Notes: generated by a model from the sequence alone, not told the origin. 63,406 nucleotides of DNA, filler included, from 13 parts of 13 records of this genome joined end to end with filler, not necessarily neighbours in it, one strand, 5' to 3'. Numbered from the whole stretch's first letter, positions 3,321 to 53,339 are shown. Numbers and translations: made by a program.

Positions 3321-3500
3321 CGTGTGTTCTCTCCGCCGAACAGGTCCCGCGCTTTTTTTAGTGGACTCTATTTTTGGAACTGAAACGACAGACACAATCG
3401 ACACCGGTGCACGTCGACACGCGCACATGTAGGATAATCGGCGCGTCAAATCCTCGAGAGCGCGTCATGTCTAGCTCGTGATGTAGTTTTATACAAATAT

Positions 3501-4804: not shown

Positions 4805-4904
4805 NNNNNNNNNNNNNNNNNNNNNNNNNNNNNNNNNNNNNNNNNNNNTTAATTAATTAANNNNNNNNNNNNNNNNNNNNNNNNNNNNNNNNNNNNNNNN
4901 NNNN
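4805..4904. other. Artificial contig-joining spacer (first of 12)
   Basis: 44 N + TTAATTAATTAA (stops in all six frames) + 44 N. Identical spacers at 9181, 16965, 22374, 25968, 30069, 36218, 40004, 43523, 47761, 53240 and 57724. Adjacency across these spacers is not biological. Confidence 0.98.
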
Positions 4905-8841: not shown

Positions 8842-9563
8842 GCTGGCTGCCAACCCGGGTGCTCTCGCCGCTCCCCTGGTCTCCCTGGTGCGCTCTGCCG
8901 CTCTCCAACGGCAGAGCAACGTCAAGTTTGTTTCGCTAGCAGTGCGTCACAGGGTGTGCCTCCTGACCAAGCCGGCACCGCCTCGCGCTGATGTTGGCCA
9001 GCGAGGTCCCAGCCGCGGCCAGCAATCAGCATCCTGATGCTGGGGGGGCAGGACGGGGCTGCGGCAGGGCACGCCGGGCGGCCTTGACTGCGGCTGCCCC
9101 AATGCAAAAACGGTGCAGGCACACGAAATCCGATTACAGTACGTAGAATTTAACACTTGATAACTATATAGATCAGGGCTNNNNNNNNNNNNNNNNNNNN
9201 NNNNNNNNNNNNNNNNNNNNNNNNTTAATTAATTAANNNNNNNNNNNNNNNNNNNNNNNNNNNNNNNNNNNNNNNNNNNNAATGGAATGGGAGGGACAAT
9301 TCTGTTGAATGAATCCTCTATCCCCGAACTCGAAGACACACCCGAGTGTAAGTCGGATGAAGGTCAAGGACACAGCAAGCGATGCGATGCAATCGAATTG
9401 CCGTGTACCTGCTGCAGCAGCACTCCCCAATCATTGCTAGCTCGAGAGAAGTGAGGCACTATTAATTTTGTTGTGGCTTCAGTTCCTTGGAAGTCTCCCA
9501 AGCGAGCACATGTTAACATGCATTGCATCAAATAGCGAGGTCAGCATGGTGGGCGGTTGAGGA

Positions 9564-16964: not shown

Positions 16965-17402
16965 NNNNNNNNNNNNNNNNNNNNNNNNNNNNNNNNNNNN
17001 NNNNNNNNTTAATTAATTAANNNNNNNNNNNNNNNNNNNNNNNNNNNNNNNNNNNNNNNNNNNNGTCGAGAGGAGCACCAGCAATAGTAGACGCCGTGGA
17101 GCCATCGGAATGTTAAGCCACCGCCTCAAAAGGAAAGACCCTTCCAGCTTGTGATTCCAGTCAGTTGTCATCAACTGTCAGCTCAGCTACGCTTGCTACT
17201 AGCTTGATTAATGCATCTAATCTTCTCATATCGAGTTTAAAATTAATGTGTTACAAGTATGAGAAATTTACAAGACTTAGTCCATTGTAAGCCTACTGAA
17301 CTGCATGGAATCCCATGGATGACTAACAACGACATTGGCATCGGTTCTACTCGCCAATTTTGGGGTTCAGTTGCTATTTGATTTTAGCGGACGCAAAGCA
17401 GA

Positions 17403-19738
17403 TCACACACACGTCTCCGGGATGGCTGCGCATGCAGCGATTCGTGAGTAGGAATTGATGCCTTCAAAGTGCTCATAAAAGTCTCCCGCCTCAATCCAAA
17501 ACCCGCCAGCGCACCCGTCGGCCTCAGGTCCAACACACTCCCTCAGTTGAGAAGTCCAACTAGTCTGGTCAGCCGGGCAGAATCTGCCGGACCAAGTGGA
17601 GTGTCCCCATGGGTTCCTCAACTGAATCAAGCACAATTTGGGACTGGCCCGCACTAGCCGCAGCACACTGTAATCGTGCCCTCGCACAATCCCGGATTGC
17701 TCTTTGAATCCACTCACACAACAGATGTCACCTTGTAACTGCCAGCCCTCGAGCATCTCGACGCAGGCTGCCGTGTCCGCAGGTCGGACTTCTGTTCTGT
17801 CCGGGCCCTGCCAGCTCATGTGCAGCCCTCGAGCGTTCAGCGGCTCAAACCCCATGCACCGATACGGATAGACATCAGCAAAGCACTCCTCGTCATCCTG
17901 CTCCGGCTCCTCGCCTCCATCCTCGTCCTGGTCCGAGCTACTTCCGCTATCCGAGTCGTCACCGGCCAGCTTCACGAACCCACCGGCCACTTTTGCCCAG
18001 CTCTTCTCGAGCAGGGTGTACTGATGCAACCCAGGTGTGCCAGACCTACCGAGCAACCTGCACGGCACTCTATCGTCTGTCACCACAAATCGCCACCCGG
18101 ACACCGGCGCGCACCACAGCCTGAGCACCACGATCCCGTGCTCCAGTAGCGCAGGGCTGATCGGACTTAGCATGTGCTGCAGTAGCTCACTATGCACTGG
18201 GTGGCTCGAGAGCGCCGACACAAATGAAGTTAATTTACAGCTCCCCCACTCGCCTTGAAGCAGTTCGCCCAGCGGGTTGCCCTGCTCCGACATCGCGCAC
18301 AGCGGGATCATCCCAAGCCGCCGATAGCTGCGCTGCTCTGCTCCGGCTTCCTCGGACGGTTCACGGCCGAAAAAGTCTGAAAAAAGCGGATCTGTGAACT
18401 GAACACCTGCAGCTTGACAAAGAGCAACAAGCTTTGCACTCGGGTCGTGGGTAAGGAAGGTGCCAACTGGTGCGTGCGGGAAGCTGGCTTTGATTGCAGC
18501 CAGGCCCTCAGGCCCGTCGGCGTGCTCTGTCAGTACCGCGAGCAGTCGTGCTTGCAGTTCATCGCTCGGTGCGGCCTCCTCTCGTTGGCCGAACTGATTC
18601 AACCGCCTCATCGTCTCAGCCGAAGGCGGACAGAGAGTCGGAAGCACGGTCCGTGTGTAGAGCTCCCACGCAGTTGGTAGCTTGGCCCTACACGGCAGGG
18701 CTCAGAGCAGGGGCCGAGGCTAGGGTCTCACCGGAGCTCGTCGGACCTGCGAACTGTCCACTCAGCCTCTGGCGCTCCTGTCGATTGATTGAATGGGCCA
18801 AACTCAGCCTGCAGGTCCCAGGCGGTGGTAATCAGCCAATAACCAAACTCCTGGAGCTCGACGCGGAGCAGTTCGGCCGGGTTCCCCACCACCTCCTCCT
18901 CATAGTCTGATACATCGTACAGCCCAGCTGCTATCGCTTGCTTCATGCACGCATTAAGGGCCGAGTTCTCATCCAGGCCCCAGTCGGCAGGGTAGGCGTG
19001 GTGCATCCCGACGTCGGTGATGTGGTGCAGCACGTGCTCTAGAACCTCCATAGGCTGGCTCTCCACCCCCTGTCCTATCCGATCGCAAACCGACCAGCTC
19101 CCGGCTCCCGTCGGCTCAGGCGCCGATTCGTCCTCGCCGTACGACACTGGGCAGAGCGCCTGGTACCTGTGACAGCACTGGATCACCCGCAACTGTGCCT
19201 CGGTGTCGATCTGCTCGGACGGGCGGAGTATCTCCGCCGTGACCGCCGCCACAGCTTCAAGGAAGCTGGGAGTCGTGTCCGGGCAGCCGAGGTACTCGAC
19301 CCCACACGCCGCCACCCGCTGCGTGAAGTCCGGTCCGAACGCGGAAGTTGGCTCGACCGCACCCACCCGGTAAGGGGTTTGGGTGGCAGGCCGCTGCGGC
19401 TCCCTCTGCACGCATCCGCCCAGCAGACAGGCGCTGTCGCAGGAGCCCTCATCGTCGCTGCTTCCACTGTCCGCAGGCCTCAGGTCGCCCGCAGGGAGGT
19501 GGTCCTGCGGGCAGCTTTCCAACAAGCTGGCCACGTGCTCGATTGCGGCCAGTGCTGCGGCCGGGCCGTCTCGGGCCGCCTTGCGCACCCGGCGTTCGAG
19601 CTTGTCCAGGGCGCGCTCCTGCTTGGACGAGGGCCTGAGTTGGTCCAGGCACTGGCCCACCGCCGCGCCCCGCCCGTCCACGTACTCAGCCCGCAGTGCG
19701 GCCAGGAAGGCCCGCTTTGCCGGCTCGAAAGTTGCCAT
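17403..19738 (-). CDS. Fusion of an uncharacterised EHxxH-containing domain with a calpain (C2) catalytic domain
   Basis: GT-AG intron 18688-18731 joins ORF 18728..19738 in frame to ORF 17403..18647. Calpain motifs FTDPLF, QGEWGSC, VVTDDRVP, LLEKSWAK, GHDYSV, LRNPWG and GGFWI. Confidence 0.75.
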
Positions 19739-20982: not shown

Positions 20983-22296
20983 TCAAATTTCATCACCTTC
21001 GCCATCATCAAATTGCATCATTGGATCAAAACCAATCGGCTCAAAGTCCCCGTCCTCGTCCTCGTCCCCAAAGTCATCAAACGCCACATGCTCCTCCCCG
21101 TCGCTGTAGTCAATCGAGGTATAGTCTGTCCAGCTATCATCACTTGGACTCAATTCTTCCTGGTCTTTCTCAAACTGTTCTGCACCGGCACTAGGCTCAC
21201 GCCCGCCCACCAGCCCTCTCACCCTTCACTGTAGCAGCTGCTTGCACAATATACCGCCGTAGCGCCGTCCGGCCCCTCGCTGCCGCCCGGCTCCCGTCTA
21301 CCGGCAGCCATCCGTACCTCCAGGCTGCGGCCACGGGATCGGCTCGGGTGGGCACATCAGCGCGTCGGCCTCGTAACTTGCGATATCAAACGCAAACGCT
21401 GATCTGCCGAAGTTAAACTCGATCACCTGCCGACGCAACCGAATCTGCCCCGCCCGCACACCCCAGGCTACCGAGAACGTGTCCAGTCCGGCCGCGGGGT
21501 GCAAGTGAGACAGCATGGCCCGAGCGTCAGTCTGGTAAGCCGGGCCAAGCCAGTCGCCATTCTTCGTAAAAAACACAAGACCGCGTCGGAAGTCTATCCC
21601 AGCCCCAATCGTGTCGCCACAGCCATAGGTCGGCCCGTACACATCGCCCGTCATCCCGTTTTCTCCATTGAAAATGTGGCCGTCGTCGCCGTGGTACCCG
21701 AAACTGCCGGGTATCCACCCGGGCTGGTGATCAACGCTCGGGAAATGACGATCGACCAGACCTATTGAGACCATCTCCGGCGGGGTCCACGAGCGGGCTT
21801 GCCCGTCGGCGCCCTCCGGCAGGATCCGGATCTCAAAGTAAGCCACGCAGCTCACCCCGACCTCCACCTCATTCCGTTGCCACCGGGCTGCAGTGTGCGC
21901 CATCCCGCACCGCCAGCCCGGGAACCGGGTCCGGGCCCGCACCACCCGGTCACCCCCGAGGGTCTCGACCGGTCCAGTGTACACGCACCGATGGGCGCTC
22001 AGGAGCACCAGGTCCTCACACGGCCCACCGGGCGGTGCAGGGTCGAGCGATATGGGCATCGGGTGGGTCAGCCGGATCAGCGCCGGCCACGGGGCCGCCC
22101 CGCGCTGCGAGTGCCGTTGGACCAGCCGGTGATGGTCGGCGCCCCACAGCCGGGCCAGGTGCCGCCGCCAGAGCAGCCCCTCGCGCCCGGCGGTGTGCGC
22201 GTGCCAGGCGCGGCAGCTGGCGCCGGCGAGGGCCAGGCTGGGGGCGGGCAGGCAGGCCAGCACCTCCCAGGTCAGCTCGGGCGTCAGCTGATCCAT
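20983..22296 (-). CDS. F-box + SPRY (RanBP9/10-type) protein with acidic tail
   Basis: MDQLTPELTWEVLACLPAPSLALAGASCRAW (F-box). SPRY motifs YFEIRI, QPGW..SFGYHGDDG, YGPTYGCGDTIGAG, VFFTKNG and FNFG. Three short introns. Confidence 0.88.
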
Positions 22297-22797
22297 CCTG
22301 GACAGATCGGCAAACCCAGCCCTGGAAGCGCCTCACCCAACAAATAAAATTGTTTTAGCCAGGATGGCTCAAGNNNNNNNNNNNNNNNNNNNNNNNNNNN
22401 NNNNNNNNNNNNNNNNNTTAATTAATTAANNNNNNNNNNNNNNNNNNNNNNNNNNNNNNNNNNNNNNNNNNNNAAGAGTTTGGAGCTTGCCTGAGCGCTG
22501 CGGCGGAGGAGGACACATGAAGGAGGTGTTCATCTCTCGGTATTCTCTCGGCATCCCCGGGCTTGTCTAGCCGGGCTTCTGCCAAAGCGCCTTGTGAGCA
22601 TGTACAGATGTACAATACATCACAACTTCAGCTATAGCCAGCCCCGGTTACTGCTATACAGTCAGCCCTGGTTACAATTCGTACTACAAAACGCTCGTTA
22701 TATATCTGGTTGCGGTTGGCCGGTTGCGTACTGGTATATACTCGTACCAACCCTTCGATGAGTTCGTCTCGAGATACAACGTATTTATTGACTTATG

Positions 22798-25967: not shown

Positions 25968-26069
25968 NNNNNNNNNNNNNNNNNNNNNNNNNNNNNNNNN
26001 NNNNNNNNNNNTTAATTAATTAANNNNNNNNNNNNNNNNNNNNNNNNNNNNNNNNNNNNNNNNNNNNTG

Positions 26070-29000
26070 GCTGGAGCGTCGGTTCAGCTGCCGTTGGTGT
26101 TTCAATCAGCAGATGGTGGAGAGATGGCCCAGTGGCTGGCTACGCTCTCTCCGTCAGGTAGTATGCGACCTTTTGATGTTGAAGCTGATGGGATGGTACG
26201 TGGTGAAGCCAGTGGCGCCCTTGTGTTGCTTCAGCAACCTGATGACTGCAAGCTGGTGGGCTCAGGGGCCAACTGCAACAATGCCCTCTCTCCGAGCGGG
26301 TTTGTGGACCTAGCCATGATCCAACAGGCGGCAATCGAGGCATTGGGAAATGCAGCAAGTAGGTCGGATCAGGTGGGAACATGTCACCCACATGCAATGG
26401 GCAACCCGGCTTCGGACCTGCCCGAATTGGCTGGGCTGGTCAAGGCATTTGGCGAGGCTGACACACCGAGCTTGGTAGTGTTAGCAGGGCACAAGGCAAA
26501 CTTCGGACACTCGCTGAACGCCGCAGGGCTGATCTCAGTGGTGGTGACTTCATTGGTGTTACAGCATGCCATGGTGCCTGTGCACCTCAAGGTTGCAACT
26601 CCTGTGCCATTTATAGCGCAAACAAAGTCGCTTTTGCTACCAGTCGAAGAGGCTGGAGTGCTGCAGCCCAGTGTCAGTGGAGTACAGCTTGGATCCATCA
26701 GTGGGACATCAGCCTCGGGCGACAATGTACACTTGGTCATGCAGCATGCGGGAGTCGAAGTAGGCAGATGCAGCTGGGCCACGGAATCCCTGAGGCGTGC
26801 ACAGCCAGAACCGGATCAGCAAGCGAGCTGTCCACAGGCACCAGCAAGCTTAGTCCATAACACCGCCAGCATGGATGACACATTAACGCAGAGGAAGACG
26901 ACACTCAGCAGAACCAACTTTGACATGGTGGTTGGTGTTGAAACCGAGGTCGTACAGCAAACCTCTTCTGGATCGGAGACGACGCATCGGGGGGCACTTG
27001 TAGACCAGATTCATAGAATTGTACAAGAGGTTGCATGTCTGTCCAACGATACTGCAGACGACGACAACCTCTTTGAGTTGGGGCTCACAAGTCAGCAGGG
27101 AGCACAGATCTTGAGCTCAATCAAATCCAAGACTGGGGTGGCACTAGAGATGTCTGACCTGTTTGTTGCACGAACAGTGCATGGACTTGTAGATGCAGTT
27201 GGTGACACCATGCACGTTCCAGTGGAGAGAGGGGACGCCAGCAGGGTCAAAGTGGACGTGAGGGACGTGCGTGCAGAAAACAACTGGTCAACCATCAAGC
27301 ACTCTGACGAGACAAATAGCTTCAAAGACTCCAAACTCACAGATGGCTGTGTGGACGTTGTAATCATTGGTGCTGGTGCATGTGGTGTGTTCCTTGCGCG
27401 TGATCTTGCAGAGTGTGGTGTCAACGCGATTATTGTAGAACAAGAGCGGCACATTGGAGGTGTCTGGTATTACAACAATTATTTTGGACTCCGCCTTCAT
27501 CAATTTGGGGCACCCTACCGCTGTGGCTCTGTTGCACCGTCGTGGATGGAATCCGAACACAATTTATTCCGACCGTCAAGAGACATGATTCTGCAATATC
27601 TACAGTCTTGCCTGTTACATCACCGAATTTCTGTACTGACTGGTATCCAGGCACACTCATGGTCATTGGTTGGCAACCTCTGGGCAACAGATTTGTCGGA
27701 TGGAACAAGTTTGGTCAGCAGAGTACTGGTACAAGCAACAGGCCTCGCTTCTGCATTTGGGGGGAAGATGGCGATCCCTCCTGGATGTACGCTCGACGCC
27801 CAAACAATCCACTCTAAGGATGCCACACTGGAAAGATTAGTAGTCAATGATCCTCAGAAGTCACAATTGTGCATCATCGGTGCTGGTAAGACTGCAGTTG
27901 ACCTGCTGAATAGTCTGAACATGTTGGGCTTTACAAGACTCACTTGGATGCATCGTGGTACAATTTACTTCAACAACAGACGCAAACTTCTAAATCCGGG
28001 AAGTTCATTTCAAGCAATTGGTGAGCGTCTGGAACTAGCATTGCGATTAGACAGACACAGTGCCTGGGAGAAGCTGGTAGACGATGGAATTCTGATCCGA
28101 CCTCGGTGTTCAACGATGAGTGACCGACCATTCAGGGGTGGTGTGTGCTCTCCAGAAGAACTGGCTGTGGCCGATCGTGCAACAACGCTTCTGGTGGAAG
28201 AAATACACCAAGTGGAGAGGGGGCAGATAACCTACAGCAAACGAGGTGCTGTTGGAAGGTCGACATTGGCCTTCGATCTTGTAGTACTGTGCACTGGTCA
28301 AAAGCGTCTCAACTTCACAACAGCAAGCCCGCCTCATGATGGACAAGGCAACTTCAAGCTGTATCCGTTTGGCCTTACAACTGTTTCACTTTGCTACATA
28401 CCCTACGTAAGTCGCGTACTTCGCTACCTTCGACACGGAGATAGCGAACCCATTCGCCTGGAAGGCATGGATGAAACACTGCCACCACCGTTTGATATCA
28501 TAAGTGCGATGCAAAACAAACTGGATTGCTTCTGTCTGTCATCAAAGCGGGAACACGACTTCAAGAACGGGGACAACGGTGCGACAGTAGAATATTACCA
28601 CGGATGGTTCAACAAAAAAATACCAGTTGCTGACCTTCTGGGCTGGGATGTGCATTTAATATCACCACCACAGCATGCGCCAACAACAACTGTAGGACCA
28701 GCTGTAGACTGCAGCATGAATGTCAGAATTGCAGGGATAGCATGCGAATTTTCTCCTTCAATCACAAATCAAACATACTTATGGAATCTTCTCATGTCGG
28801 CCGACTGTTGCATAACAGATATGCCCCCCGATAGATTTCGTCAAGCATGCAATCAAGTCGATGCACCCAGGGCAGTGCGCACAGGATCATTTATCACCTT
28901 GAGGGAAACAAATCAACAACTAGACGCTCATCTAATACAGCTTCAAGCTGCAATAGAGAGAGCCATACGTGATGCAAGCCTGCATCTCAAGGACACCAAT

Positions 29001-30068
29001 GCCAGTTCACAATGCGGCTTATTCAGCGGTATAGAGGCCTCTGATTTCATTGTCCCTGCACCATCATTTTTGGTGAGTCGCATTTTGGCATCGGCAGCAG
29101 GTATGACCGGCCCACATCTCAACTTTGCTTCAGGGTGCGCTACAGGTTACCTTGCCATGCACAACGCTGCAGCGCACATGAACAAAGGTCAGATCGACAC
29201 AGCAATTGTGGCATGCTGTGGCCTGCGGCTTAAAGCAGAAGTAGGGCAAGCTAGAATCCTGGTTAGCAGATTAGGAGTGCTGCGTCCATTAGATATGAGT
29301 TCGGATGGGACAATCTTCAGTGAAGGGTGCTGCAGCATGGTCCTGGCAACATCATCGGAGTCGACGCTCTCACGATCGTGTGCGACACTGGTAGGGTCCG
29401 CAGTTGAGTCTGTTGATGTCAAATATCCATTGGGCTTTGCTGATCCTGTAAGCATGAAAGAGGTAGCACTTAGAGCACTGGAGATTTCTCGAGTGCCACT
29501 GGACGCTGTTGGTTTCATTATTTGTCATGCAATGGGGAACCCTAGTTCAGATGCCCCTGAGTGTAAAGCAATGGTAGATGTGTACGACAAGCCGGCTGTG
29601 GGTAACAACAGAACGATGGTGAATTACAAGGCAGCATACGGTCATTGTCCCTCAAACTCTGGGATGGTTTCTGCCCTGTTGACAGGCTTAGTACTTCAGC
29701 ATAGCTGCTCACCTCGAATGCAGAGGGTGATTTCACCACTGAGGGTTTTGAAGCAAGCTCGGGTGCTGGTGCTACCACTAAAATCACCAAAATTGTTTGA
29801 TGTTGCGATCACAGAAAGAGTTGGATGTATAAACGGGACGTCTGCCTCCGGTGAGAACGTGCACTTAGTGCTTCAATGTGATGATAATTCCAGCTTACGG
29901 CCTGAAATCTCATCCTGCTGGCAAGCATCGCTACGAGCCTCTAACAGCCCAGGGTTCCGAGGCCCGCCGCCGTCGCAGGTGTTCCAAACTGCTGCCGCAA
30001 CGGATTTAGCACCCTCCTTGGGGATGGATGAGCTCCATACAGCGCTCTTTGAGCTGCACAGCGAGCTT
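26070..30068 (+). CDS. Modular type I polyketide synthase fragment: KS(partial)-ACP-flavin monooxygenase-KS-(ACP start), no AT domain
   Basis: Open across the whole contig. KS motifs RPFD..ADG.VRGE, HAMGN, KANFGH. ACP LFELGLTS. FMO motifs VVIIGAGACG, GGVWYYN.Y.GL, IHSKD, IIGAGKTAVD and DLVVLCTG. The second KS has SGCATG/HAMGN/KAAYGH. Confidence 0.9.
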
Positions 30069-30403
30069 NNNNNNNNNNNNNNNNNNNNNNNNNNNNNNNN
30101 NNNNNNNNNNNNTTAATTAATTAANNNNNNNNNNNNNNNNNNNNNNNNNNNNNNNNNNNNNNNNNNNNTACCGGCCCGCCGTCCGCAATCCCACGCGCTG
30201 CATCGCCGTGCCGTAGCCTGTTCCGAGCCGGTCTCGAGAGCAAGGCTACGAAACGACGAAACAAGGCTACGAAACAAGGCCATAATTTCTTTTTAATTTC
30301 TCGATGCAGCAGCGGGTCGTCATATTTCCCTCCTTGGAAGGCATTTGTTACTGAGTTGTTACGCGCCACCGGCTTGAGATCATCACATGGCGTCTTGAAA
30401 AGC

Positions 30404-32542: not shown

Positions 32543-35500
32543 ATGATGCCGCACCACACGCTGGCAGCGGCTCTGATGCTCCTGGCGGCAGGCCGGGCCG
32601 CGGCCAGCCCATGCCTCGGGGAGTTCGTGCTGGAGCCTGGCACAGGCGAGTGCGTTCTTGCGGCCAACAATGGCGACCCCGACGAGCCGCTGGCCTCGCA
32701 CCCGCGCTGCCCCGGCAGCTTCGCCTGTCCGGCCGGAGGGTGCGCCGACAGCCCCGCCGAGTACGCCCGGTGCGTCGGGGCCGGTTTCGTACCCGAGCGC
32801 ACGGCCCTGGGCGCGGAGGAGTCCGAGCTTCTGGACGTGCATATTGTAGCTCACACCCACGACGATACCGGCTACCTCGAGACAGTCGATGAGTATTACA
32901 ACGACAAAGTGGCGTCAATTCTGACCACTGTGACCGCCGAGCTGCAGAAAAACCCGCTCCGCAGGTTCACCTACGTTGAGACCGCCTTTCTGGCCAAGTG
33001 GTGGTCCGAGCAGTCGAACAGCACCAAGCAGGCCTTCCGCGGGCTGCTGGAGTCAGGTCAGATGGATTTCAGCAACGGAGGCTGGTGCATGCCCGACGAG
33101 GGCGCCCCGAGCTACCAAGACATGCTGGCCAATATGCAGAAAGGGCTCCGGTTTATTGTGGAACAGTTCGGACCGGAGTTCAGGCCGCGGGTTGCGTGGA
33201 GTATTGATCCTTTCGGGCACTCGTCCAGCTATGCTGTGCTCAACCGAATGTTTGGGTTTGATTTCTTTGTGGTCGGCCGGATCGACTTCCAGGAGAAGGC
33301 GGCCCGATTTGCGAGCAAGACTATGGAAACTGTGTGGAGGCCGGCCGAGGATAGCACAGGCTCGGAGATACTGACCCACGTGCTGGACCCGATACAGTTT
33401 TATAGTTACCCGCCCGGGTTTGGTTTTGAAGGCGACGCGCGCACCTGGGTCACCAGCGGGAATGTTGCGAGCCGCGCGAAGGATTTTGCGGACTTTATTC
33501 ACACCAAGGCTGCTGGGTATGCGACCAACTCTTTGCTCGTGCCGTTCGGCTCAGACTTTCAATATGCAAACGCCAGTATCAACTATGACAATATGGACCG
33601 CTTGATGGCGTTCATGAATACGCCAGAGAATCAAGCCAAGTTTGGGATGAAATTGCAATACTCGACTCCTACTCGCTACATGGAGGCGCTGAAGAGCAAG
33701 CAGGCGACTTGGCCTGTCAAGACCGACGACTTTGAGAGCTACGCCATCGGTCCGGATCAGTTCCTGGTCGGGTTCTACTCCAGCCGTCCGGACTACAAGG
33801 GCTTCATCCGACTCGCTTCGAGCCAGCTCCGGGCGGCTACTGTGGCGCTCACTGGGGCTGTGTTGCTCGATAGCTCAGGCGCACTCAGGTTGGCTGATGA
33901 ACTGGCTGCACTAGACCTGCAGCGGGACTATCTCGGGGTGGCGCAGCATCACGACGCGATCACCTCCTCGCAGCGGCGGCATGTGCATCGCGATTACATC
34001 AAACAACTTTCAATGGGTCAGGTTGCAGTGGATGGGTCGATCACCAGGACAGTGGCTGCAGCAATTGCCTCGGGAGCGGCGCCAAGATTGGTGACTTGCC
34101 CCTACTTGAACGAGAGCTCTTGCCCCTTTGCCGAGAACACCACTAGTAAAGGCCCCAATGCCAGCCTTGCTGTGGTTCTCCAGAATCCAACCGCCTTGCA
34201 AATGGAGGCTGTCACAATCAGAGTGCCCGTGGGTAGCCCAGCAGTGGTGGTCGACGGACAAGGAAATCCCGTGCCATCTCAGAACTTTCCGCCCTGGCCC
34301 ACTTCTCCGTTTGTGCACAACCAGACGCACAAAGCCCCGGCGGCTACTGTGGCGTTCCTCGCTCAAGTGCCTGCGTTGGGCTCGAGCACATATTTTGTCA
34401 AGCAAGCAGCCAATCCACCAACGCCAATTGTCCAGCCCAACCAGGGCCCAATTGTGCTGGACAACGGCATCATTCGTGCCGGGTTTGACCCATCTGGATT
34501 GTTGGCGTACATCCAGAATCTCCAGTACAACGTGACCGTGCTCTGCAATCAATCCATCAAGTACTATCGCGCCAGCACCGGTAAAAATGACTCCACCAAT
34601 CCATATTTCAGTGCTGGTGCTCAAGGCTCAGGCAATTACATCTTTCAGCCCGTTGGCTCGACTACGTATCCCTTCACAGCCTCTGGCAAGCCAGCATCAG
34701 TCGCCTATCTGAAAAGCGATGTTGTGTCGGAGGTACGGCTTGTGTGGGTAGCAGAGAGCATAGAGCAAGTGTACAGGCTTGCGAAAGGCTCCGACGTTCT
34801 CGAAGTCGAGTACCGCATCGGGCCGATCGACACCTCGGATGGTGTAGGCAAGGAGGTGATCTCGCTCTGGAGCACCGACATCGATTCTGGCGAAAAGTGG
34901 ACTTCGGACGTGAACGGCATGCTGCTCAAGACGCGCACACGCAACTCGCGGGGGCCACTGTATGTGCCCAACGGCCCCGAATATTTCAATCAGACAGACC
35001 CGGTTGCAGGCAACTATTTCGCTGTCAACACACAGGCTTATCTGACTGATGGCAAGCGCCGTTTGACGATACTGACTGATCGTTCCCAGGGAGGGACATC
35101 GCTGCAGTCTGGTGACCTGGAGCTAATGCTTCACCGGAGGCTCGTCAAGGGCTGCAGATGGGGGATGTGCGAACCCGGGCCCGACGGTAAGATGGAGGCG
35201 GCTGGGCTGAATGACGTGCTGGGGGCTCAAGTTGTGATCAAGCACTGGATCTCTGTGGACGTGCAGGCTCAAGATGGGAGCAGCCCAGCACTCACCAGAC
35301 AGCGGGCGAGGCAGCTCAACTACCCGCCGTCAGTCCTGCTGGGAGATGCCGGCTCGTCAGAGAAGTGGCCGCACAGCACTGCGACCCGACCGCTGTTGCA
35401 AGCACTGCCTCAGAACGTGGAGCTCACAACCTTCCAGCTGATGAGCGACCAAGAGGCCTTGTTGCGGCTCACACACATCCATCAGGCGAATGAGCACCCG

Positions 35501-35767
35501 ACACTCTCTCAGCCGGTGACGGTGGACATCTGCGCTGTATTCGGCTCAAAGCTGTGCTCGCGGCTCCGGAGCATGGTTGAGATGACCGCGGCTGGTGATG
35601 TACCGCTGGACACCATCACACGGCACAAGTGGAGTGCTGCCGCAGACGATGCACACAGGCCTGATGTGCCAACAACTAGAACAGCCAGCAATACGTCCAT
35701 CTCGTTGCACCCGGGAGCAATTCGCACCTTCCAGCTACTGCTCGCACCTATGCTACATGCACATTAG
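32543..35767 (+). CDS. MAN2B1: Lysosomal-type alpha-mannosidase, glycoside hydrolase family 38
   Basis: Signal peptide, VHIVAHTHDDTGYLETVDEYY, RRFTYVE, NGGWCMPDE, AWSIDPFGHS, QHHDAIT, DRSQGG and LELMLHRR. Intronless, 1074 aa. Confidence 0.95.
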   Translation: MMPHHTLAAALMLLAAGRAAASPCLGEFVLEPGTGECVLAANNGDPDEPLASHPRCPGSFACPAGGCADSPAEYARCVGAGFVPERTALGAEESELLDVHIVAHTHDDTGYLETVDEYYNDKVASILTTVTAELQKNPLRRFTYVETAFLAKWWSEQSNSTKQAFRGLLESGQMDFSNGGWCMPDEGAPSYQDMLANMQKGLRFIVEQFGPEFRPRVAWSIDPFGHSSSYAVLNRMFGFDFFVVGRIDFQEKAARFASKTMETVWRPAEDSTGSEILTHVLDPIQFYSYPPGFGFEGDARTWVTSGNVASRAKDFADFIHTKAAGYATNSLLVPFGSDFQYANASINYDNMDRLMAFMNTPENQAKFGMKLQYSTPTRYMEALKSKQATWPVKTDDFESYAIGPDQFLVGFYSSRPDYKGFIRLASSQLRAATVALTGAVLLDSSGALRLADELAALDLQRDYLGVAQHHDAITSSQRRHVHRDYIKQLSMGQVAVDGSITRTVAAAIASGAAPRLVTCPYLNESSCPFAENTTSKGPNASLAVVLQNPTALQMEAVTIRVPVGSPAVVVDGQGNPVPSQNFPPWPTSPFVHNQTHKAPAATVAFLAQVPALGSSTYFVKQAANPPTPIVQPNQGPIVLDNGIIRAGFDPSGLLAYIQNLQYNVTVLCNQSIKYYRASTGKNDSTNPYFSAGAQGSGNYIFQPVGSTTYPFTASGKPASVAYLKSDVVSEVRLVWVAESIEQVYRLAKGSDVLEVEYRIGPIDTSDGVGKEVISLWSTDIDSGEKWTSDVNGMLLKTRTRNSRGPLYVPNGPEYFNQTDPVAGNYFAVNTQAYLTDGKRRLTILTDRSQGGTSLQSGDLELMLHRRLVKGCRWGMCEPGPDGKMEAAGLNDVLGAQVVIKHWISVDVQAQDGSSPALTRQRARQLNYPPSVLLGDAGSSEKWPHSTATRPLLQALPQNVELTTFQLMSDQEALLRLTHIHQANEHPTLSQPVTVDICAVFGSKLCSRLRSMVEMTAAGDVPLDTITRHKWSAAADDAHRPDVPTTRTASNTSISLHPGAIRTFQLLLAPMLHAH

Positions 35768-36519
35768 CTCGCATAGATACATAGCTCGCACCATTGATGA
35801 TTGATCAGAAGTTTAGAACCTTTTGTGAAGCACTGAAGCTCCCGAGAGAATATCGGACAGGTCGTGTACTCGTACTGATTGTTGAATTTGAGCTATATAA
35901 AATTGAATTGAAATGCGACAAAATTTTATATAAACGACAGCTATACACTTGAGTCATGTGTAGATTATTTTCAGCTGGACGAGTATCGCGATCGATCGAT
36001 CGGTTCATTCGACCACGACTACAGTATACTCCACATGAATTAATAAGCCCAGTCTTTACGCGTAACTAGACACATTCCTGAGTGGACGGGCGCTCGCCGG
36101 CACTCAGCGGACTCAGAGGTCCGGCCGGCCCGGCTCCTGCCCGGTGTCGCGGTATAGCTTGGCCACGGCGCTTTTGACTCGATCGTACCCGCCGCCGTTG
36201 ATCACCGCGCTAAAATTNNNNNNNNNNNNNNNNNNNNNNNNNNNNNNNNNNNNNNNNNNNNTTAATTAATTAANNNNNNNNNNNNNNNNNNNNNNNNNNN
36301 NNNNNNNNNNNNNNNNNCCCCGGCCGATCCATTTTTAACGGACTCTCTCCCCGCTCAGGCGGTGTGCACATCAGTTGCATGTAAGATGCATGCCCTAGTG
36401 GCCTCAAACTACTAAAATAAATACGAGCTCTCTCACACCTCAATTCTTACAACTAGTATTTTATTAAAATTCTATAATTCCACTGAAGTCAAACAAGTAC
36501 TGATTGAACATTTTATACG

Positions 36520-39500
36520 CTACTCATACTCGGCAAAGACCCTTTGCGAGAGCAGCACTTGTTCGAGAAGTTCGGCTCTCTCAATCTCGAGCGGTGGCTT
36601 CATCATCATCTCGCTCAGCCGGGCCACGATCTGCTTGAGCAGCACCAGCTTGGTCTCGGCCAAGAACTCGTCGTTTGTACCAGGATCGAAATAAAACATA
36701 GCAATCTCGAAATTGCGCAGGTACTCGCGGCATTTATGCTGCACCGCAATCGCTTCGTTGATCAGCTCCACAATCGCGGCCTTGTCCGCTGGGTCGCCGT
36801 GCTCCATGACAATCTACGGCCGGTTGGGCTTAACGAACCGCCTATCAGGCCAGCACCTCGCAGTTTTCAGCCAGCTTGGGCTCCATCTCCTTGAGCTGCT
36901 TGGTGTCCGTGTCGTGCTCTTTCCAGGCAGTCCAACACGCCAGGTACCTGCACGCACTCAGCCTGACTGCAGAAGCTGCCAGGCTGACCGGAGCAAGTCG
37001 GCCCGCTTCTTGTCCTTGCCTGCGAGCTCTTTCATGTTCAGTTCTTTGGCCTTTCTGTTGCAGTCAAAGAAAGAATCGTGTGTATTGGTGCCACTTCTCG
37101 GGGTGCCGTTGCCACCCTTGTACATCGGTTGCAGACACACCCTGCAACAAGTTCTGAGACCGACAGACCGCTAGACTGACCAGCAAAAGTGGTATCCACA
37201 TCCTCCTGTGCTTGTGCTGTCGTAGGGCCCTCCTGAGCCACACTTAATGTGGTTACAGCCGCCGTTCTTGGAGATCGCGTTGCCACATCTGGGGCAAGAC
37301 TTGGTGTTCGATTCGATCCAAGTCATCGTGGCGTTTCCTCCCTCATCAACGCTTCGCTTGTTCCAATCCTTCATATCGGTGCCTGCCAAACAGCAGGCGT
37401 CAGGCCTTGTGGTTAGGCCAACTCACAGCTGACGGGCTTGTGCCCCACTGGGCCCTGATGCAGGCACCAGAAGCAGAACGTATGCTGATTGCCGCAAGTG
37501 AAGGGCAAACACTCAACCGTGCTAGTAGCCTGTGTGACTTGTCTGGACTTGCTGCCGTCGATCGCCATCGTGCAGCCAGGCGCTGGGCACCATTTGATGA
37601 GTGGAGCTTGTCCCACAAAGTTCTGCAATCCAGCCAGTCAGCATCACTCAGCAGCCAGTCTCGTGCCTGGAGCAGGAAGCGCTGGTACCGGTCATATGTA
37701 TCCTCATCCACTAGCCTTTTGATCATGGACTCGGGCACGTGAGGGCACCCGCCGCTTTCGGGGGGATTTGCGGCGCAGATGGGGCACCGGATCACCAGTT
37801 TGTTCTCAGCGATGCTCCTGGAGATGTTCTCCCGCCAGCAAGGCACGCCTGCCCGGGTCCAGTCAGCCCCAAAGCGCTAGGGGTCGCGCACAGATCTCGT
37901 GACCGCACATGAGCATCGCATAGTGCGGCGACAGATCGTCAGGAGGAGGGTCCTTCACAGGAGAGTCGTCGTCGCCCCAGTATGCCACGCAGTCATCCGC
38001 GATCCCGAGAGGACAGCAGTTCCAACTCGGCTCGCATTTGGCCTCTGTGGGGGGCGCCATTTGCAGCCCGCATTTGTTGAGCAGGGCCTCGACGCCACCA
38101 AATGCAAAGAAGTCGTTCCTGCCAGCAGCCTCAGATATCACACACTGGAGCGACTCACATGAGATTGCCTTGACTCCAGTTGTAGTACGGCAGCAGCACG
38201 GCCACCAACGCGGTGTCTATCCCGAGCATCTCCTGCGCTTTCAGGATCCGCTCCGATCGGGCTGCTGCAATCTCATCCGACGACATAGCACAGGGCATGC
38301 ATTGCACTTCCTCCACCACCTCCCCGCCCCAGCCATCGCTGCTGCCTCCCGAGGGCCAGCTGTCGCTGTCGCTCCCATCGTGGTGCCAGCAGTCGTCGTC
38401 GTCGTCCTCGTCATCGTGCCAGCCGTCGTCCTCCTCATCATCCTGCTCTGCCTCGAGCTCAGCCGCGAGCTCCGCTGCCTCTCGAGCCTCCGCCTCCAAC
38501 CGCCGCTTCTCACGCTCCTCGCTTTCCTGCTTCTTGGCGGCCCTGGCAGCCTCAATGCTCTCCACTAGCATCTCCACACTCACCTCAATGTCAAGATTGA
38601 CAGACTGGTCGGTATGAAGCTTCAGTGCAACCGCCACCTCCCTGGCCTCATACCCTCTCTCGAGCAATGCCGTCCTGAGCAGCTCTTTGTGCACCGAGAA
38701 CTGCTCCTGCCGCTGCCTGGCCGCCGCCTCCGCCGCCAGCTCGGCCTGTCTGGCCTCGCGCTGCTGCTGCCACTCACGTTCCGCTTGATTGATCTCCACC
38801 AGCCAGTCCCTCTTCGCATCGACCACACGCATCTCCTTGAGCAGCTCAGACGGCGTGCTCCCGCCATGCGCTGTCCGGGCCCCGAGCACCACCGCCGCTG
38901 CCAGAAGCGCCTCCTTCTGGCAGCTCAGCTGCAGCGCGGTTTGGCCCTGGCTGTCAGGCCTGTCTTTGCCCTGGGCCGCCTGCATCATATCTGCCAGCAG
39001 CGCCAGGTGTGCCTCGAGCTGCGCCTCAGCCGGCTGCATGCACACCGCCGTGTGCACAGGGGTCCTGCCCGTCCCCTTCTGCGGATGCAGCGGGTTGGCC
39101 AGCCGTGTAAGCAGGCACTTCCCTGCCTCGAGTCTATAGTGCCTTACAGCAAACTGCAGCGCTGTATTCCCATCATAGTCCTGATCGTTGGCCAGCACGA
39201 ACGGAGCCTTGCTGCTCAGCTGCTCGAGCACGTCAGCTACCTGCCCGTTCTCGGATGCGGCCAGCAGCTGCATGTGTCCCTCCTGAAACGCCGCCTGCAG
39301 TTCGGCTGTGCGCTGCGCAAGCAAGCCCTGCTCCGTCTCGCCGTCAACCAGCCCAGCCAGGCAGTCGCAGCTCGCCCCGCGGGCCAGCAGTGCCTGCACC
39401 AGCTCCTCGTCCAGCGCCCGCCCGAGCAGCGACTCGGGCCCTTTACCGGGCAGCCCGTCCGGCCGTCGGGTGGAGCCGGCGGCCGCCGCTTGGCACGCCA

Positions 39501-39930
39501 CGCCGAGCGGGGTCTGGCCGTTGGCGTCGACAGCGTCCATGTCAGCCCCGAAGTTGAGCAGCAGCAGCCCGGTGAGCACCGGGGCTCGGCCGAACTCGTG
39601 CACGCCCACCGGTTCCATCTCGCTGTAGTCGACAGGCGGCAGCCCGCGGGCCGGCATGCCGCCCGGATGGCCGCAGATGTACCGGGCCGCGACGTGCAGC
39701 GGAGTCTCGCGCTCGGGGCCGCCCGGGATGCTCGGGTTGGCCCCCTTGCGGAGCAGCGCCAGCACCTGCAGCGGCTCGCCGGCGAGGACCAGCCGGTGGA
39801 GCAGCGGCAGCCCGTCGAGCTCGATCGCGTCAAGCTCCGCCGGGGAGGCGTGCCGGTTGTCGGCGAGCAGCGCGTCCACCGCCATCAGCGCCTGCGAGCT
39901 TCCTGATGGCCGGCGCCGCAGCTGGAACAT
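36520..39930 (-). CDS. Ankyrin-repeat + Ariadne-type RBR E3 ubiquitin ligase (ANKIB1-like architecture)
   Basis: ANK repeats (ETPLHVAA, GNTALQFAV), then the spliced RING1 (CGHEICVPCW), IBR (KWCPAPGC...FCFWC...HKPVSC) and RING2 (NTKSCPRCGNAISKNGGCNHIKC...FCWVC). Seven short introns. Confidence 0.88.
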
Positions 39931-40103
39931 GGACGGCGCTTCCTGAGGCCCGGCCCGGCGCTCAACGGACTTGCACGCCACTCAGAGTTTGCTCCAACGG
40001 AAGNNNNNNNNNNNNNNNNNNNNNNNNNNNNNNNNNNNNNNNNNNNNTTAATTAATTAANNNNNNNNNNNNNNNNNNNNNNNNNNNNNNNNNNNNNNNNN
40101 NNN

Positions 40104-43522: not shown

Positions 43523-43939
43523 NNNNNNNNNNNNNNNNNNNNNNNNNNNNNNNNNNNNNNNNNNNNTTAATTAATTAANNNNNNNNNNNNNNNNNNNNNN
43601 NNNNNNNNNNNNNNNNNNNNNNCCTGCGGCAGCTCCCACTTGCCCAGCCACATCAAGCCAGAGCTTGCAGTAGACCCCTGACCCAGAGCTTGCATTTGTT
43701 GAATGAAAATGTCGTTGTGCAACGTCCGCAGTGATGTGGCAGCAGGACTAGAGTCAAGTGCGAGTCGGAGCTCAAGCATGCTTAATTTGTGTACGTTGTG
43801 TGAGCGGTAGCTCAACGTTGGTTAGAAGCTACGTTCTTCCACGCTCGAGCATTTTCCAAATTCCAACGTATATATCCCGCAATTTTATACAGAGAGTGAC
43901 TCATTAACTTAAGTGCGCACAAGAAGCTCTTTTGTTGGC

Positions 43940-47760: not shown

Positions 47761-47860
47761 NNNNNNNNNNNNNNNNNNNNNNNNNNNNNNNNNNNNNNNN
47801 NNNNTTAATTAATTAANNNNNNNNNNNNNNNNNNNNNNNNNNNNNNNNNNNNNNNNNNNN

Positions 47861-50219: not shown

Positions 50220-50556
50220 GCCGGGAGGTAGGCCGGGCCGGCTAGGCTCAATACACCAGCCTGTTGGCTGCTCAACGTGCGCTGCGTCGGCGCGTGCTGG
50301 CGGTTTTTGCCGTTTGCGCGAGGCTTTAATTAATCGCCGTTCGCCTGATTTTGTTCGTCTGTTGATCCTTTTAGAAGCCCCGTAGCGTATGCGCGCCCCC
50401 GGATTCGTACCGGGCATTGACATGCGCCGAGCTACATGCGGCTGTACAATACTTTATCTATCTAGTAACATCATGTCTGATCAACTTTGAACGTTGTTGT
50501 AGCTCACATTGAACTGCAAGGTCCGTTGGCGATCTCACCACCCACCGGGCGGTACG

Positions 50557-53076: not shown

Positions 53077-53339
53077 GTGACTGAATCGTGGGTTTATCGT
53101 CGGGTTTGACCCGTGCGACCGTTGAGTAAATTGATTGTGGTTAACGCGAACAATGCCGGCCAGTTGTGCACAACCGCGTGATCTAACTAAGTCTTTAGAT
53201 GGCACACCGGGTCGTAACCTGCGTCTCTCTGATTGCGTCNNNNNNNNNNNNNNNNNNNNNNNNNNNNNNNNNNNNNNNNNNNNTTAATTAATTAANNNNN
53301 NNNNNNNNNNNNNNNNNNNNNNNNNNNNNNNNNNNNNNN

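Follow-up and report, generated by a model that had tools for sequence, protein, structure and literature searches.

Introduction

In the available passages of PMC6174933, the bacterial monooxygenases OocK and PedG act on beta-keto thioesters from KS-(inactive DH)-ACP modules of polyketide synthases (PKSs), and the next ketosynthase (KS) forms a clade of its own. Oxygenase (Ox) domains integrated into bacterial trans-AT PKSs show several chemistries, LbmC-Ox being glycolyl-forming, LbmA-Ox forming an oxime with a KS0 (PDB 8odw) and spliceostatin Ox forming an epoxide (excerpts of PMC7586987). For dinoflagellate polyethers, labelling points to Baeyer–Villiger insertion and C1 deletions during chain assembly, according to the portions of PMC2866473 available to us.

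The contig analysed here resembles the dinoflagellate, haptophyte and algal AT-less PKSs in its modular organization, its lack of an acyltransferase (AT) and its environmental marine origin, but the KSs described in the accessible parts of those reports have normal active-site motifs, whereas the KSs of the contig are of a HAMGN type (PMC5725682; PMC4661987; PMC10366177). Passages and term searches of the same three reports yielded no mention of a class B monooxygenase domain, and no description of such a domain in algal PKSs was found in the freely accessible literature that was searched.

Results

The window, i.e., the whole stretch of DNA that was analysed (63,406 nt, filler included), consists of 13 contigs joined by N44-TTAATTAATTAA-N44 linkers. 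One of these contigs carries a single open frame, which comes from the interior of a longer megasynthase gene and contains the following features.

26068-30068 (4001 nt): stand-alone metagenome contig, with linkers at 25968-26067 and 30069-30168 on either side
26070-30068, + strand: single open frame of 1333 codons, no stop, open at both ends, no intron in 4 kb
26070-26777 (aa 1-236), + strand: KS1, C-terminal half, HAMGN-type (Pfam, alignment)
26391-26408, 26493-26510 and 26715-26732, + strand: KS1 motifs HAMGNP, KANFGH (Lys and second His) and SGDNVH
26778-27002, + strand: linker between KS1 and the acyl carrier protein (ACP), 75 aa, S/T/Q/P-rich, no family match in Pfam
27003-27200 (aa 312-377), + strand: ACP domain (PP-binding, PF00550, 41.5 bits, 1.7e-10)
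27342-28679 (aa ~425-870), + strand: predicted class B flavoprotein monooxygenase domain (Pfam, AF2 model, fold matches, subfamily alignment and tree)
27369-27386 and 27879-27896, + strand: oxygenase dinucleotide motifs, GAGACG (FAD) and GAGKTA (NADPH)
27456-27500, 27804-27824 and 27945-27962, + strand: other oxygenase motifs, GGVWYYNNYFGLRLH, the conserved His and WMHRGT
28131-28142 and 28287-28304, + strand: distal oxygenase motifs, FRGG and LCTGQK
28722-29924 (aa ~885-1285), + strand: KS2, complete HAMGN-type ketosynthase (Pfam, alignment)
29130-29147, 29526-29543, 29628-29645 and 29847-29864, + strand: KS2 motifs SGCATG (active-site Cys), HAMGNP, KAAYGH and SGENVH
29925-30068, + strand: tail after KS2, 48 aa, cut by the contig end, no Pfam match

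Pfam families occur along the 1333-aa frame in the order KS1 C-terminal half (Ketoacyl-synt_C, aa 62-174), ACP, two-Rossmann flavoprotein monooxygenase (Pyr_redox_2, Pyr_redox_3 and NAD_binding_8, aa 429-631) and KS2 (ketoacyl-synt N, aa 885-1097, then a second Ketoacyl-synt_C). No AT family was present among the 19 Pfam families with E<=0.1 on the frame, an absence that covers the single visible module of the 4-kb contig, and the linker between KS1 and ACP is too short to leave room for one. The KS-ACP-FMO-KS order without an AT, which an earlier note had read from this DNA, is thus borne out in one frame, and the motifs that it quoted (HAMGNP twice, SGCATG, GLTS and both Rossmann motifs) were all found at their sites in the translation. 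The synthase may be of the trans-AT kind and may belong to a large or even giant assembly line. Within the contig DNA no long repeat occurs; the longest direct one is the 26-nt stretch that encodes HAMGNP (81% identity). An Rfam search of the contig gave no match.

The phosphopantetheine Ser of the ACP lies within GLTS (27081-27092; context LGLTSQ), in which Thr replaces the Asp usual before this Ser. The site varies in relatives too, reading GINS in protein P0273 and GSSS in P0123.

Standard PKS ketosynthases carry the signature motifs TACSSS, HGTGT and GFGGTNAH. These are not matched in the contig, where the KS domains read SGCATG, HAMGNP and GTSASG(D/E)NVH, with SGDNVH of KS1 standing in place of GGTNAH. 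Across 282 KS domains from 147 proteins compared, HGTGT occurs in 231 and HAMGN in only three, namely KS1, KS2 and one KS of P0273. In the alignment, neither the threonines of HGTGT nor the FGF stretch is present in the HAMGN ketosynthases, and in the clade member from P0273, its first KS, the second His is a Leu; these losses suggest that HAMGN domains may not condense at all. The catalytic residues of KS2 are in place, its Cys, first His, Lys and second His corresponding to C164, H304, K336 and H341 of Escherichia coli FabF (MAFFT alignment, numbering with Met), which agrees with the earlier claim of a retained Cys-His-His set. KS1 keeps the His, Lys and His relative to FabF, and its Cys region lies off the contig.

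The Pfam scores (69.3 bits for ketoacyl-synt, PF00109, and 89.7 bits for Ketoacyl-synt_C, PF02801, against a gathering cut-off of 20.8) are low for PKS ketosynthases, relatives reaching 180-260 bits, and with a canonical KS query the HAMGN ketosynthases reach 21-23 bits, less than the 47 bits of E. coli FabF. Many clade-specific conserved positions are nevertheless common to KS1, KS2 and the first KS of P0273. In a 50-row KS tree, KS1, KS2 and the one environmental protein form a clade with SH-aLRT 100 and a stem of 2.2, placed outside all 46 other PKS KS rows, a position to which a long-branch warning applies; the divergent KS clade of the earlier note is supported, with both ketosynthases in a strongly supported and very long-branched group. 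Joining this long-branched clade to a protist-like KS clade was not rejected (AU p 0.155). A separate clade of the KS tree unites the second KS of P0273 with the KSs of the oxygenase-carrying relatives. An AF2 model of KS2 built from a three-row alignment was unusable (pLDDT 38, pTM 0.34). We propose that the HAMGN domains evolve rapidly on a side branch of the PKS ketosynthases and that they may be specialised to accept oxidised intermediates or to act as gatekeepers for them; elongation and mere transacylation appear equally probable for them.

For the oxygenase, the AF2 model (pLDDT 75.9, pTM 0.79) was matched by Foldseek to DiatB, CHMO, OTEMO, PAMO, SMFMO and the LbmA Ox-ACP didomain, all with probability 1.00. 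The VIA Z-scores of these structures run from 22.6 to 18.5, an effective tie within which BVMO, FMO, NMO, DiatB and thioredoxin-reductase-like folds are not separable. The model thus predicts a two-Rossmann class B flavoprotein monooxygenase fold. The LbmA Ox-ACP didomain ranks with the best structural matches (Foldseek TMq 0.57; VIA Z 21.1 over 387 aligned residues), and LbmA-Ox, LbmC-Ox and spliceostatin Ox are likewise monooxygenases built into a module, but in sequence the query is only weakly related to the integrated bacterial Ox domains (N-terminal stretch only, 38.6 bits to the subfamily profile) and their domain order is not that of the contig. An in-line FMO-like domain in the bacterial PksL-like protein P0009 gave no phmmer match to the oxygenase.

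By sequence, the nearest solved relatives are type I BVMOs, with similarity over the N-terminal part only (OTEMO at 6.7e-10 with the single sequence, and at 2e-16 with a subfamily-only profile over profile positions 13-157). A profile from alignment A1, which reached PAMO at 2.7e-79 in the PDB, was set aside since A1 contains BVMO-like rows. At E<=1e-3, 788 library proteins match the oxygenase. In a 43-row tree, a subfamily clade of 22 rows (SH-aLRT 99, stem 1.24) was recovered, with the consensus elements ARDxAxCG, GGVWxxNxYPGLRLH, YRC, HSS, GxxKAAxD, WxHRGH, RGG and CTGQR, and the query keeps the FAD, NADPH, GGVW, YRC, His, HRG, RGG and CTGQ elements. On these sequence features, the oxygenase is assigned to a distinct, conserved and undescribed subfamily.

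The oxygenase resembles PAMO, CHMO and OTEMO in its two-Rossmann fold, in a stretch similar to GGxWxxNxYPG, in the ATG-like CTGQ motif and in retaining the His of the fingerprint. It differs from them in its separate long-stem clade and in its active site. The BVMO fingerprint FxGxxxHxxxW[P/D] is replaced by LDAQTIHSKDAT, in which only the His is kept and the W/P is lost, and PAMO W177 is absent in 13 of 13 subfamily rows, the query included. Asp66 and Arg337 of PAMO, which we take to be the catalytic residues of type I BVMOs, become His and Thr in the query when it is aligned with Thermobifida fusca PAMO. The other 12 subfamily rows have His (seven), Gln (four) or a gap (one) at position 66, and Gln (nine), Glu (two) or Leu (one) at position 337. 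Around the latter position the alignment is weak, and an Arg ~14 residues upstream (RGG) is invariant. Asp and Arg are kept in PAMO and in four of four BVMO-like rows. Much of the BVMO helical insert is also missing from the subfamily in the alignment. The earlier note had named the domain a Baeyer–Villiger/flavin monooxygenase; an in-line flavin monooxygenase of class B fold stands, while the Baeyer–Villiger part loses its footing with the fingerprint, Asp66 and Arg337 of T. fusca PAMO. Its placement among BVMO and FMO enzymes, which the note had called for, gave a class B fold in a clade (SH-aLRT 99) separate from the type I BVMOs.

Elsewhere, KS, ACP, thioesterase and adenylation domains occur as fusion partners of the subfamily. 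The oxygenase stands directly after a KS in four of 16 scanned matches (P0124, P0128, P0137 and P0138), none of which has an AT, and behind the last of four KS domains in P0147 (6005 aa). The C-terminal half of a HAMGN-like KS in P0164 leads directly into an oxygenase N-terminus 65% identical to that of the query. P0149 has an ACP and then the oxygenase, and P0123, 40% identical across the oxygenase, continues with an ACP-like stretch and a thioesterase. KS-to-FMO and ACP-to-FMO junctions thus occur in independent sequences, and among the relatives found there was no independent example of the FMO-to-KS junction. The oxygenase mostly follows a KS directly in relatives; the order ACP-oxygenase-KS was seen only in the query contig.

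A five-row subfamily alignment was searched against prokaryote genome contigs, and the best 80 of 493 relatives were inspected: the subfamily motifs occur in none of these 80 loci, whereas all 80 have Asp at PAMO position 66 and 52 carry the fingerprint FxGxxxHxxxW[P/D]. JGI metagenome searches with the whole protein and with a HAMGN-KS alignment returned pattern matches, none of them a relative, and viral contig searches with the oxygenase subfamily and HAMGN-KS alignments found no relative. A word-index protein search restricted to region 400-900 and near lengths gave none among 8000 candidates, although a representative search did find relatives. In the Protein Atlas, the oxygenase and KS2 matched only generic FAD-oxidoreductase and KS clusters; one look-alike cluster of the oxygenase is 76% Eukaryota, which we treat as a lead only.

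Discussion

Taken generally and without choosing a single chemistry, the reading of the contig as part of a modular type I PKS that is AT-less and oxygenates an ACP-bound intermediate on-line is rather probable. KS1 would extend the chain with a malonyl unit, the loading AT presumably being encoded elsewhere. Because there is no KR, DH or ER between KS1 and ACP, the ACP would carry a beta-ketoacyl thioester. In the tethered flavoenzyme, NADPH would reduce FAD, a C4a-(hydro)peroxyflavin would form and this species might oxygenate the ACP-bound beta-keto intermediate, which KS2 would afterwards receive. Oxidation of the ACP-bound beta-keto intermediate on the assembly line is the most likely role of the oxygenase. 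The chemistry proposed is read from the domain context, as no functionally characterised enzyme is known in the oxygenase subfamily or among the HAMGN ketosynthases.

A true Baeyer–Villiger module is a tentative candidate for this chemistry. Oxygen would be inserted next to the beta-keto carbon to give a malonyl-ester that KS2 accepts, as with OocK/PedG or LbmC-Ox. The substrate logic of OocK fits, with an unreduced KS-ACP module before the oxygenase and an unusual KS after it, and the contig resembles the OocK/PedG/TobD systems in having an FAD/NADPH monooxygenase for an ACP-bound beta-keto thioester of such a module, an AT-less line and a phylogenetically distinct next KS (available passages of PMC6174933). 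The subfamily also keeps most of the BVMO-typical GGxWxxNxYPG stretch, type I BVMOs are the solved structures closest to it in sequence, and dinoflagellate labelling, in the accessible portions of PMC2866473, requires such steps during chain assembly. However, W177 and an Arg at position 337 are lost in all 13 subfamily rows and His or Gln takes the place of Asp66 in the aligned rows, whereas PAMO and all four BVMO-like rows retain the three residues, and much of the BVMO helical insert is gone. OocK, as far as the available text describes it, is free-standing and bacterial, whereas the query oxygenase is fused between ACP and the next KS; it also belongs to another subfamily without the BVMO Asp/Arg pair and fingerprint, a distinction from OocK that is drawn by description.

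A hydroxylating bimodule, in which an electrophilic hydroperoxyflavin would alpha-hydroxylate the enolisable beta-keto thioester or oxygenate another carbon and the HAMGN KS2 would be a non-elongating gatekeeper that passes the product on, is an only slightly less probable candidate. Such a bimodule would be the functional counterpart of the MupA/OocM bimodule and the PKZILLA-1 FLX modules. With the fingerprint and the Asp/Arg pair of BVMOs gone, nucleophilic Criegee chemistry is less to be expected (the alignment being weak near position 337), and the relaxed second His in the HAMGN clade (first KS of P0273) and the missing HGTGT threonines and FGF stretch fit a KS that does not elongate. Carbon hydroxylation is, on the other hand, uncommon for class B flavin enzymes, and all catalytic residues that can be seen in KS1 and KS2 are intact, which is not typical of a KS0. 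Bacterial alpha-hydroxylation acts on a beta-keto-ACP and is followed by a KS0, but the PKS alpha-hydroxylases MupA and OocM have another fold, being class C TIM-barrel (luciferase-like) FMN enzymes that need a separate reductase, whereas the query would be a single-component class B enzyme (available sections of PMC10952193). In-line alpha-hydroxylase flavoprotein domains are reported in algal PKSs, and PKZILLA-1 of Prymnesium parvum belongs to an algal assembly line that is AT-less like the query (accessible parts of 10.1101/2024.01.29.577497). PKZILLA-1 FLX and MupA/OocM, in the portions of these sources available, also couple in-line oxidation to an unusual or non-elongating KS; the FLX fold is taken from papers cited in the preprint and compared by description.

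The host has to be considered separately. The earlier note had assigned the contig to a eukaryote bin, and the other 12 contigs of the window are clearly eukaryotic, but the query contig is a strong composition outlier that may come from another organism. Its GC is 0.510 (0.569-0.645 in the other 12), its GC3 is 0.488 (0.65-0.835 in 10 other ORFs of the window), and its mean tetranucleotide correlation with the others is 0.41 (0.81-0.87 among the others); the last two values make its bin membership doubtful. This composition, the 4 kb without an intron and the fact that every named PKS match is bacterial would also fit a mis-binned piece of a bacterial trans-AT PKS cluster, e.g., of a symbiont. 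We consider that origin improbable, as the named bacterial matches are just 20-33% identical, the subfamily motifs are absent from the best 80 of the 493 prokaryote relatives, no relative was found in the JGI metagenome and viral collections, and the linkers are long, S/T/Q/P-rich and of low complexity. In addition, the closest relatives (P0123, P0164, P0158, P0153 and P0273) are environmental fragments, several of them without a start codon, as exons would be. The contig most likely comes from a marine protist, not necessarily the organism of the bin.

A decaying gene, in which the flavoprotein domain would be catalytically dead or purely structural and the HAMGN domains would be degenerated ketosynthases, is very improbable. 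KS divergence is extreme (21-23 bits against 47 bits for FabF with the canonical query) and several family hallmarks are gone from KS and oxygenase, but the frame is open over 1333 codons, the oxygenase retains its two dinucleotide motifs along with the residues invariant in its subfamily, the catalytic Cys, His, Lys and His are kept, and the three HAMGN ketosynthases have many clade-specific positions in common.

With on-line oxidation of the ACP-bound beta-keto intermediate as the preferred reading, the flavin monooxygenase, built into an AT-less PKS of protist type and adjoining a KS clade seen almost nowhere else, becomes a concrete and clonable candidate for the oxygen insertions and C1 deletions of dinoflagellate polyethers, for which we know of no identified enzyme; this candidate status rests on 4 kb of sequence from an uncertain host. 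As the subfamily recurs in other environmental PKS and adenylation-domain megasynthases, a biochemical assignment would annotate the whole family, and sequence-based prediction of the structures of algal polyketides and toxins would gain a new kind of module. More speculatively, and with low probability, a protist-specific class B clade and the ultra-divergent HAMGN KS clade might together form an oxidation module of marine protists' own, which in AT-less lines would perform the on-line oxygen insertion or single-carbon excision that labelling implies for polyketides of dinoflagellates and haptophytes. The active site in such a module would be a remodelled one, with His or Gln for the BVMO Asp, no BVMO Arg and an invariant RGG.

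Contig Structure and Domain Organization

The window comprises 13 short contigs (3.4–7.7 kb) joined by artificial linker and is not one stretch of genome. Its 63,406 bases contain 24 runs of 44 N, paired around the string TTAATTAATTAA (N44-TTAATTAATTAA-N44 linkers at 4805-4904, 9181-9280, 16965-17064, 22374-22473, 25968-26067, 30069-30168, 36218-36317, 40004-40103, 43523-43622, 47761-47860, 53240-53339, and 57724-57823). Adjacency carries no synteny information, and neighbouring contigs are uninformative on the genomic context of the PKS gene. The PKS finding occupies exactly one contig (26068-30068, 4001 nt), inside which no long DNA repeat able to cause assembly collapse was identified. A plus-strand frame (26070-30068) of 1333 codons without a stop runs off both ends of this contig and encodes the following domains:

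aa 62-174, +, KS1, C-terminal half of a ketosynthase (Pfam)
aa 312-377, +, phosphopantetheine-binding domain, ACP (Pfam, 1.7e-10)
aa 429-631, +, two-dinucleotide-binding flavoprotein (Pfam Pyr_redox_2, Pyr_redox_3, NAD_binding_8)
aa 885-1097 plus its own C-terminal domain, +, KS2, complete ketosynthase (Pfam)

No acyltransferase (AT) family was detected by Pfam at E ≤ 0.1 in the 1333-aa frame, and the gap between KS1 and the ACP is 75 residues only. The ACP–oxygenase junction spans 27200-27342 and the oxygenase–KS2 junction 28679-28722. The order KS-ACP-FMO-KS without an acyltransferase, described in an earlier note, is borne out by Pfam within a single open frame, and all motifs reported there (HAMGNP twice, SGCATG, GLTS, and the two Rossmann motifs, here GAGACG and GAGKTA) were recovered in place.

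HAMGN Ketosynthases

At the sequence level, KS1 and KS2 differ widely from the usual ketosynthases of PKSs. In 147 proteins compared, which contain 282 KS domains, the motif is HGTGT in 231 domains and HAMGN in three. When the whole fragment was compared with long proteins, bacterial PKSs ranked best, at 20–33% identity, and the best solved relative of KS2 is mycocerosic acid synthase, at only 64.7 bits. A canonical KS used as a phmmer query scored 21–23 bits against KS1 and KS2, which is lower than its score against Escherichia coli FabF (47 bits).

The one real relative of these ketosynthases, P0273 (an environmental protein of 1049 aa on an ENA contig; 1.5e-42, 30% identity), contains a HAMGN-type KS followed by an ACP and a canonical KS (TACSSS, HGTGT, GHTE), so HAMGN and normal KS domains coexist in one protein. 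Its first KS carries HAMGNP and CGCSSG, and Leu replaces the second catalytic His. A similar KS C-terminal half (HVQGAPNSDLPE, KANFGH, GTSASGDNVH) is present in the 262-aa fragment P0164. Private features of the HAMGN clade include MRPFD, PLGFADP for the NQDG region, and GTSASGxNVH for SFGFGGTNAH.

In a FabF-rooted tree of 50 rows, the first KS of P0273 groups with KS1 and KS2 in one clade (SH-aLRT 100, stem 2.2 changes per site), in agreement with the divergent KS clade suggested earlier; its position outside the 46 other PKS rows comes with a warning from the program of meeting long branches. When the clade was forced in a 28-row tree to group with protist-like KS rows (KS domains from oxygenase-carrying PKSs, together with the second KS in P0273), the constraint was not rejected (AU p 0.155).

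The HAMGN ketosynthases lack the HGTGT threonines and the FGF stretch, and the catalytic residues are kept in KS1 and KS2 as far as visible: in alignment with E. coli FabF, KS2 retains the catalytic Cys (aa 1023), the Lys, and both His residues, and KS1 retains three of these four, namely those on the contig. Elongating and gatekeeping roles are equally probable for these domains.

Oxygenase Subfamily and Its Fusions

The oxygenase domain falls in a coherent, conserved subfamily. When it was compared with 1.84 billion representatives, 788 matches reached E ≤ 1e-3; 43 of them also passed E ≤ 1e-10, and two passed E ≤ 1e-30. A tree of 43 rows contains a clade of 22 rows (SH-aLRT 99, stem 1.24), within which the query and P0123 (40% identical) are sister to the remaining 20 rows (97). 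The subfamily consensus includes ARDxAxCG, GGVWxxNxYPGLRLH, YRC, HSS, GxxKAAxD, WxHRGH, RGG, and CTGQR. The FAD, NADPH, GGVW, YRC, His, HRG, RGG, and CTGQ elements are retained in the query, which argues for a working enzyme. An inactive domain, or one with some other function, is unlikely.

Members of this subfamily are found in several fusions. The oxygenase immediately follows a KS in P0124, P0128, P0137, and P0138 (four of 16 matches scanned, none with an AT), and in P0164 it follows a HAMGN-like KS. P0147 has four KS domains, with the oxygenase behind the fourth, and in P0149 the oxygenase comes after an ACP. In P0123 (840 aa), whose oxygenase is the nearest to the query, an ACP-like region (GSSS) comes next and a thioesterase after it, an order that places the oxygenase in a predicted chain-terminating module. 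Because independent sequences carry the same junctions, the KS–oxygenase and ACP–oxygenase fusions are supported as real biology; no independent example of the oxygenase-to-KS junction was identified among the relatives found. Four further proteins (P0131, P0133, P0140, and P0159; 1535–2457 aa) form their own sub-clade (SH-aLRT 99) and have the oxygenase fused to AMP-binding (adenylation/FAAL-like) domains, one of them also with an alpha/beta hydrolase and another with a hexapeptide-repeat transferase.

A GGVW-pattern scan of one genome per prokaryote species recovered at least 493 relatives. In the best 80 of these, Asp is present at the position of PAMO Asp66 in all 80 and the BVMO fingerprint in 52, and HRGH, CTGQ, and ARDxA were found in none. 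Within that scope, the subfamily looks non-prokaryotic. In the Atlas, one look-alike cluster has mainly eukaryotic members, which is a lead only.

Oxygenase Fold, Active Site, and Predicted Chemistry

The AlphaFold model of the oxygenase, built on 29 relatives, has a good core (pLDDT 75.9, pTM 0.79). Foldseek and VIA matched it to class B flavoprotein monooxygenases and related proteins, namely DiatB, CHMO, OTEMO, PAMO, SMFMO, and the Ox-ACP didomain of the lobatamide PKS LbmA, as well as to thioredoxin-reductase-like proteins, with Z values (18.5–22.6) too close for ranking families. The nearest solved proteins by sequence are type I BVMOs, over the FAD-binding N-terminal ~140–220 residues only, both with the single oxygenase sequence and with a subfamily-only profile.

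The active site was aligned across the query, Thermobifida fusca PAMO, 12 close relatives, and four BVMO-like matches. Fingerprint residue His173 of PAMO is kept in three of the four BVMO-like rows (Phe in the other), the query, and all 12 subfamily rows. The second fingerprint residue, Trp177, is kept in PAMO and all four BVMO-like rows but lost in the query and 12 of 12 subfamily rows. Asp66 and Arg337 are likewise constant in PAMO and the four BVMO-like rows; the former is replaced by His in the query and by His (7/12), Gln (4/12), or a gap (1/12) in the subfamily, and the latter, where the alignment is weak, by Thr in the query and by Gln (9/12), Glu (2/12), or Leu (1/12) in the subfamily. 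An invariant RGG (Arg at aa 689 in the query) ~14 residues upstream of the Arg337 position could bring an arginine from another position. The features tested place the domain among class B monooxygenases but outside the type I BVMOs. For the in-line Baeyer–Villiger/flavin monooxygenase of the earlier note, the structure matches support a flavin monooxygenase fold, and the loss of Trp177, Asp66, and Arg337 in the alignment speaks against a type I BVMO.

Domain order, intact cofactor motifs, and intact visible KS catalytic residues are the observed basis for a proposed series of steps. KS1 would elongate the chain with an extender unit that a separately encoded AT has loaded. The ACP would then bear a beta-keto thioester because no KR, DH, or ER precedes it; the fused NADPH/FAD enzyme may oxygenate this thioester, and KS2 would take over the product. 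The nearest parallel whose logic has been established is bacterial: OocK/PedG are described as putting oxygen into beta-keto thioesters from a KS-(dead DH)-ACP module, with the next KS in its own clade (PMC6174933).

Baeyer–Villiger insertion is a tentative reading of the chemistry, favoured by the domain context, whereas the active-site alignment is contrary to it. Alpha-hydroxylation or another oxygenation at carbon is only slightly less likely. In alpha-hydroxylation bimodules, the beta-keto-ACP is hydroxylated ahead of a KS0 (non-elongating ketosynthase) by class C enzymes (PMC10952193, in part), unlike the class B oxygenase of the PKS contig. In-line FLX alpha-hydroxylase domains are described in the PKZILLA preprint, which cites class C alpha-hydroxylation precedents (10.1101/2024.01.29.577497). 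Integrated Ox domains reportedly perform glycolyl-forming Baeyer–Villiger chemistry, oxime formation beside a KS0, or epoxidation (PMC7586987). For the present oxygenase, epoxidation or heteroatom oxygenation is unlikely.

Protist PKSs without AT domains are already well documented (PMC5725682), as are the in-line oxygenases of bacterial trans-AT lines and the in-line flavoproteins of PKZILLA. The literature searched, with subscription journals outside its scope, held no description of megasynthase domains from this class B subfamily, of the HAMGN ketosynthase clade, or of the two together, all of which appear undescribed. Oxidative steps have long been inferred in algal polyketide assembly (PMC2866473, in part), and this 4-kb fragment, with its uncertain host and predicted function, is a candidate for such steps.

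Host of the PKS Contig

The other contigs of the window encode plainly eukaryotic proteins, including ankyrin arrays and the following:

2448-3464, -, FYVE zinc-finger coiled-coil protein
9561-10559, +, RabGAP-TBC
17406-18701, -, calpain protease
21301-22296, -, SPRY-domain protein
32543-35764, +, GH38 alpha-mannosidase

GC3, computed for the last four, is 0.65–0.81. From these unremarkable eukaryotic genes or exons, the bin is GC-rich and, in agreement with the earlier note, eukaryotic; the place of the PKS contig in it is doubtful. This contig is an outlier in GC (0.51 vs. 0.57–0.65 in the 12 other contigs), GC3 (0.488 vs. 0.65–0.835 in 10 other ORFs of the window), and mean tetranucleotide correlation (0.41 vs. 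0.81–0.87 for the 12 other contigs), and probably either belongs to a different organism of the sample or has a foreign composition.

Two long ankyrin-repeat proteins are encoded in the window (50554-53073, plus strand, and 38158-39981, minus strand), the former of which (840 aa) consists of ankyrin repeats nearly throughout (Ank_2, 310.9 bits). A single open frame of 1072 aa on the minus strand (54462-57677) unusually combines DUF1853, a 3′-5′ exonuclease (DNA_pol_A_exo1), and a YbaK-like aminoacyl-tRNA editing domain.
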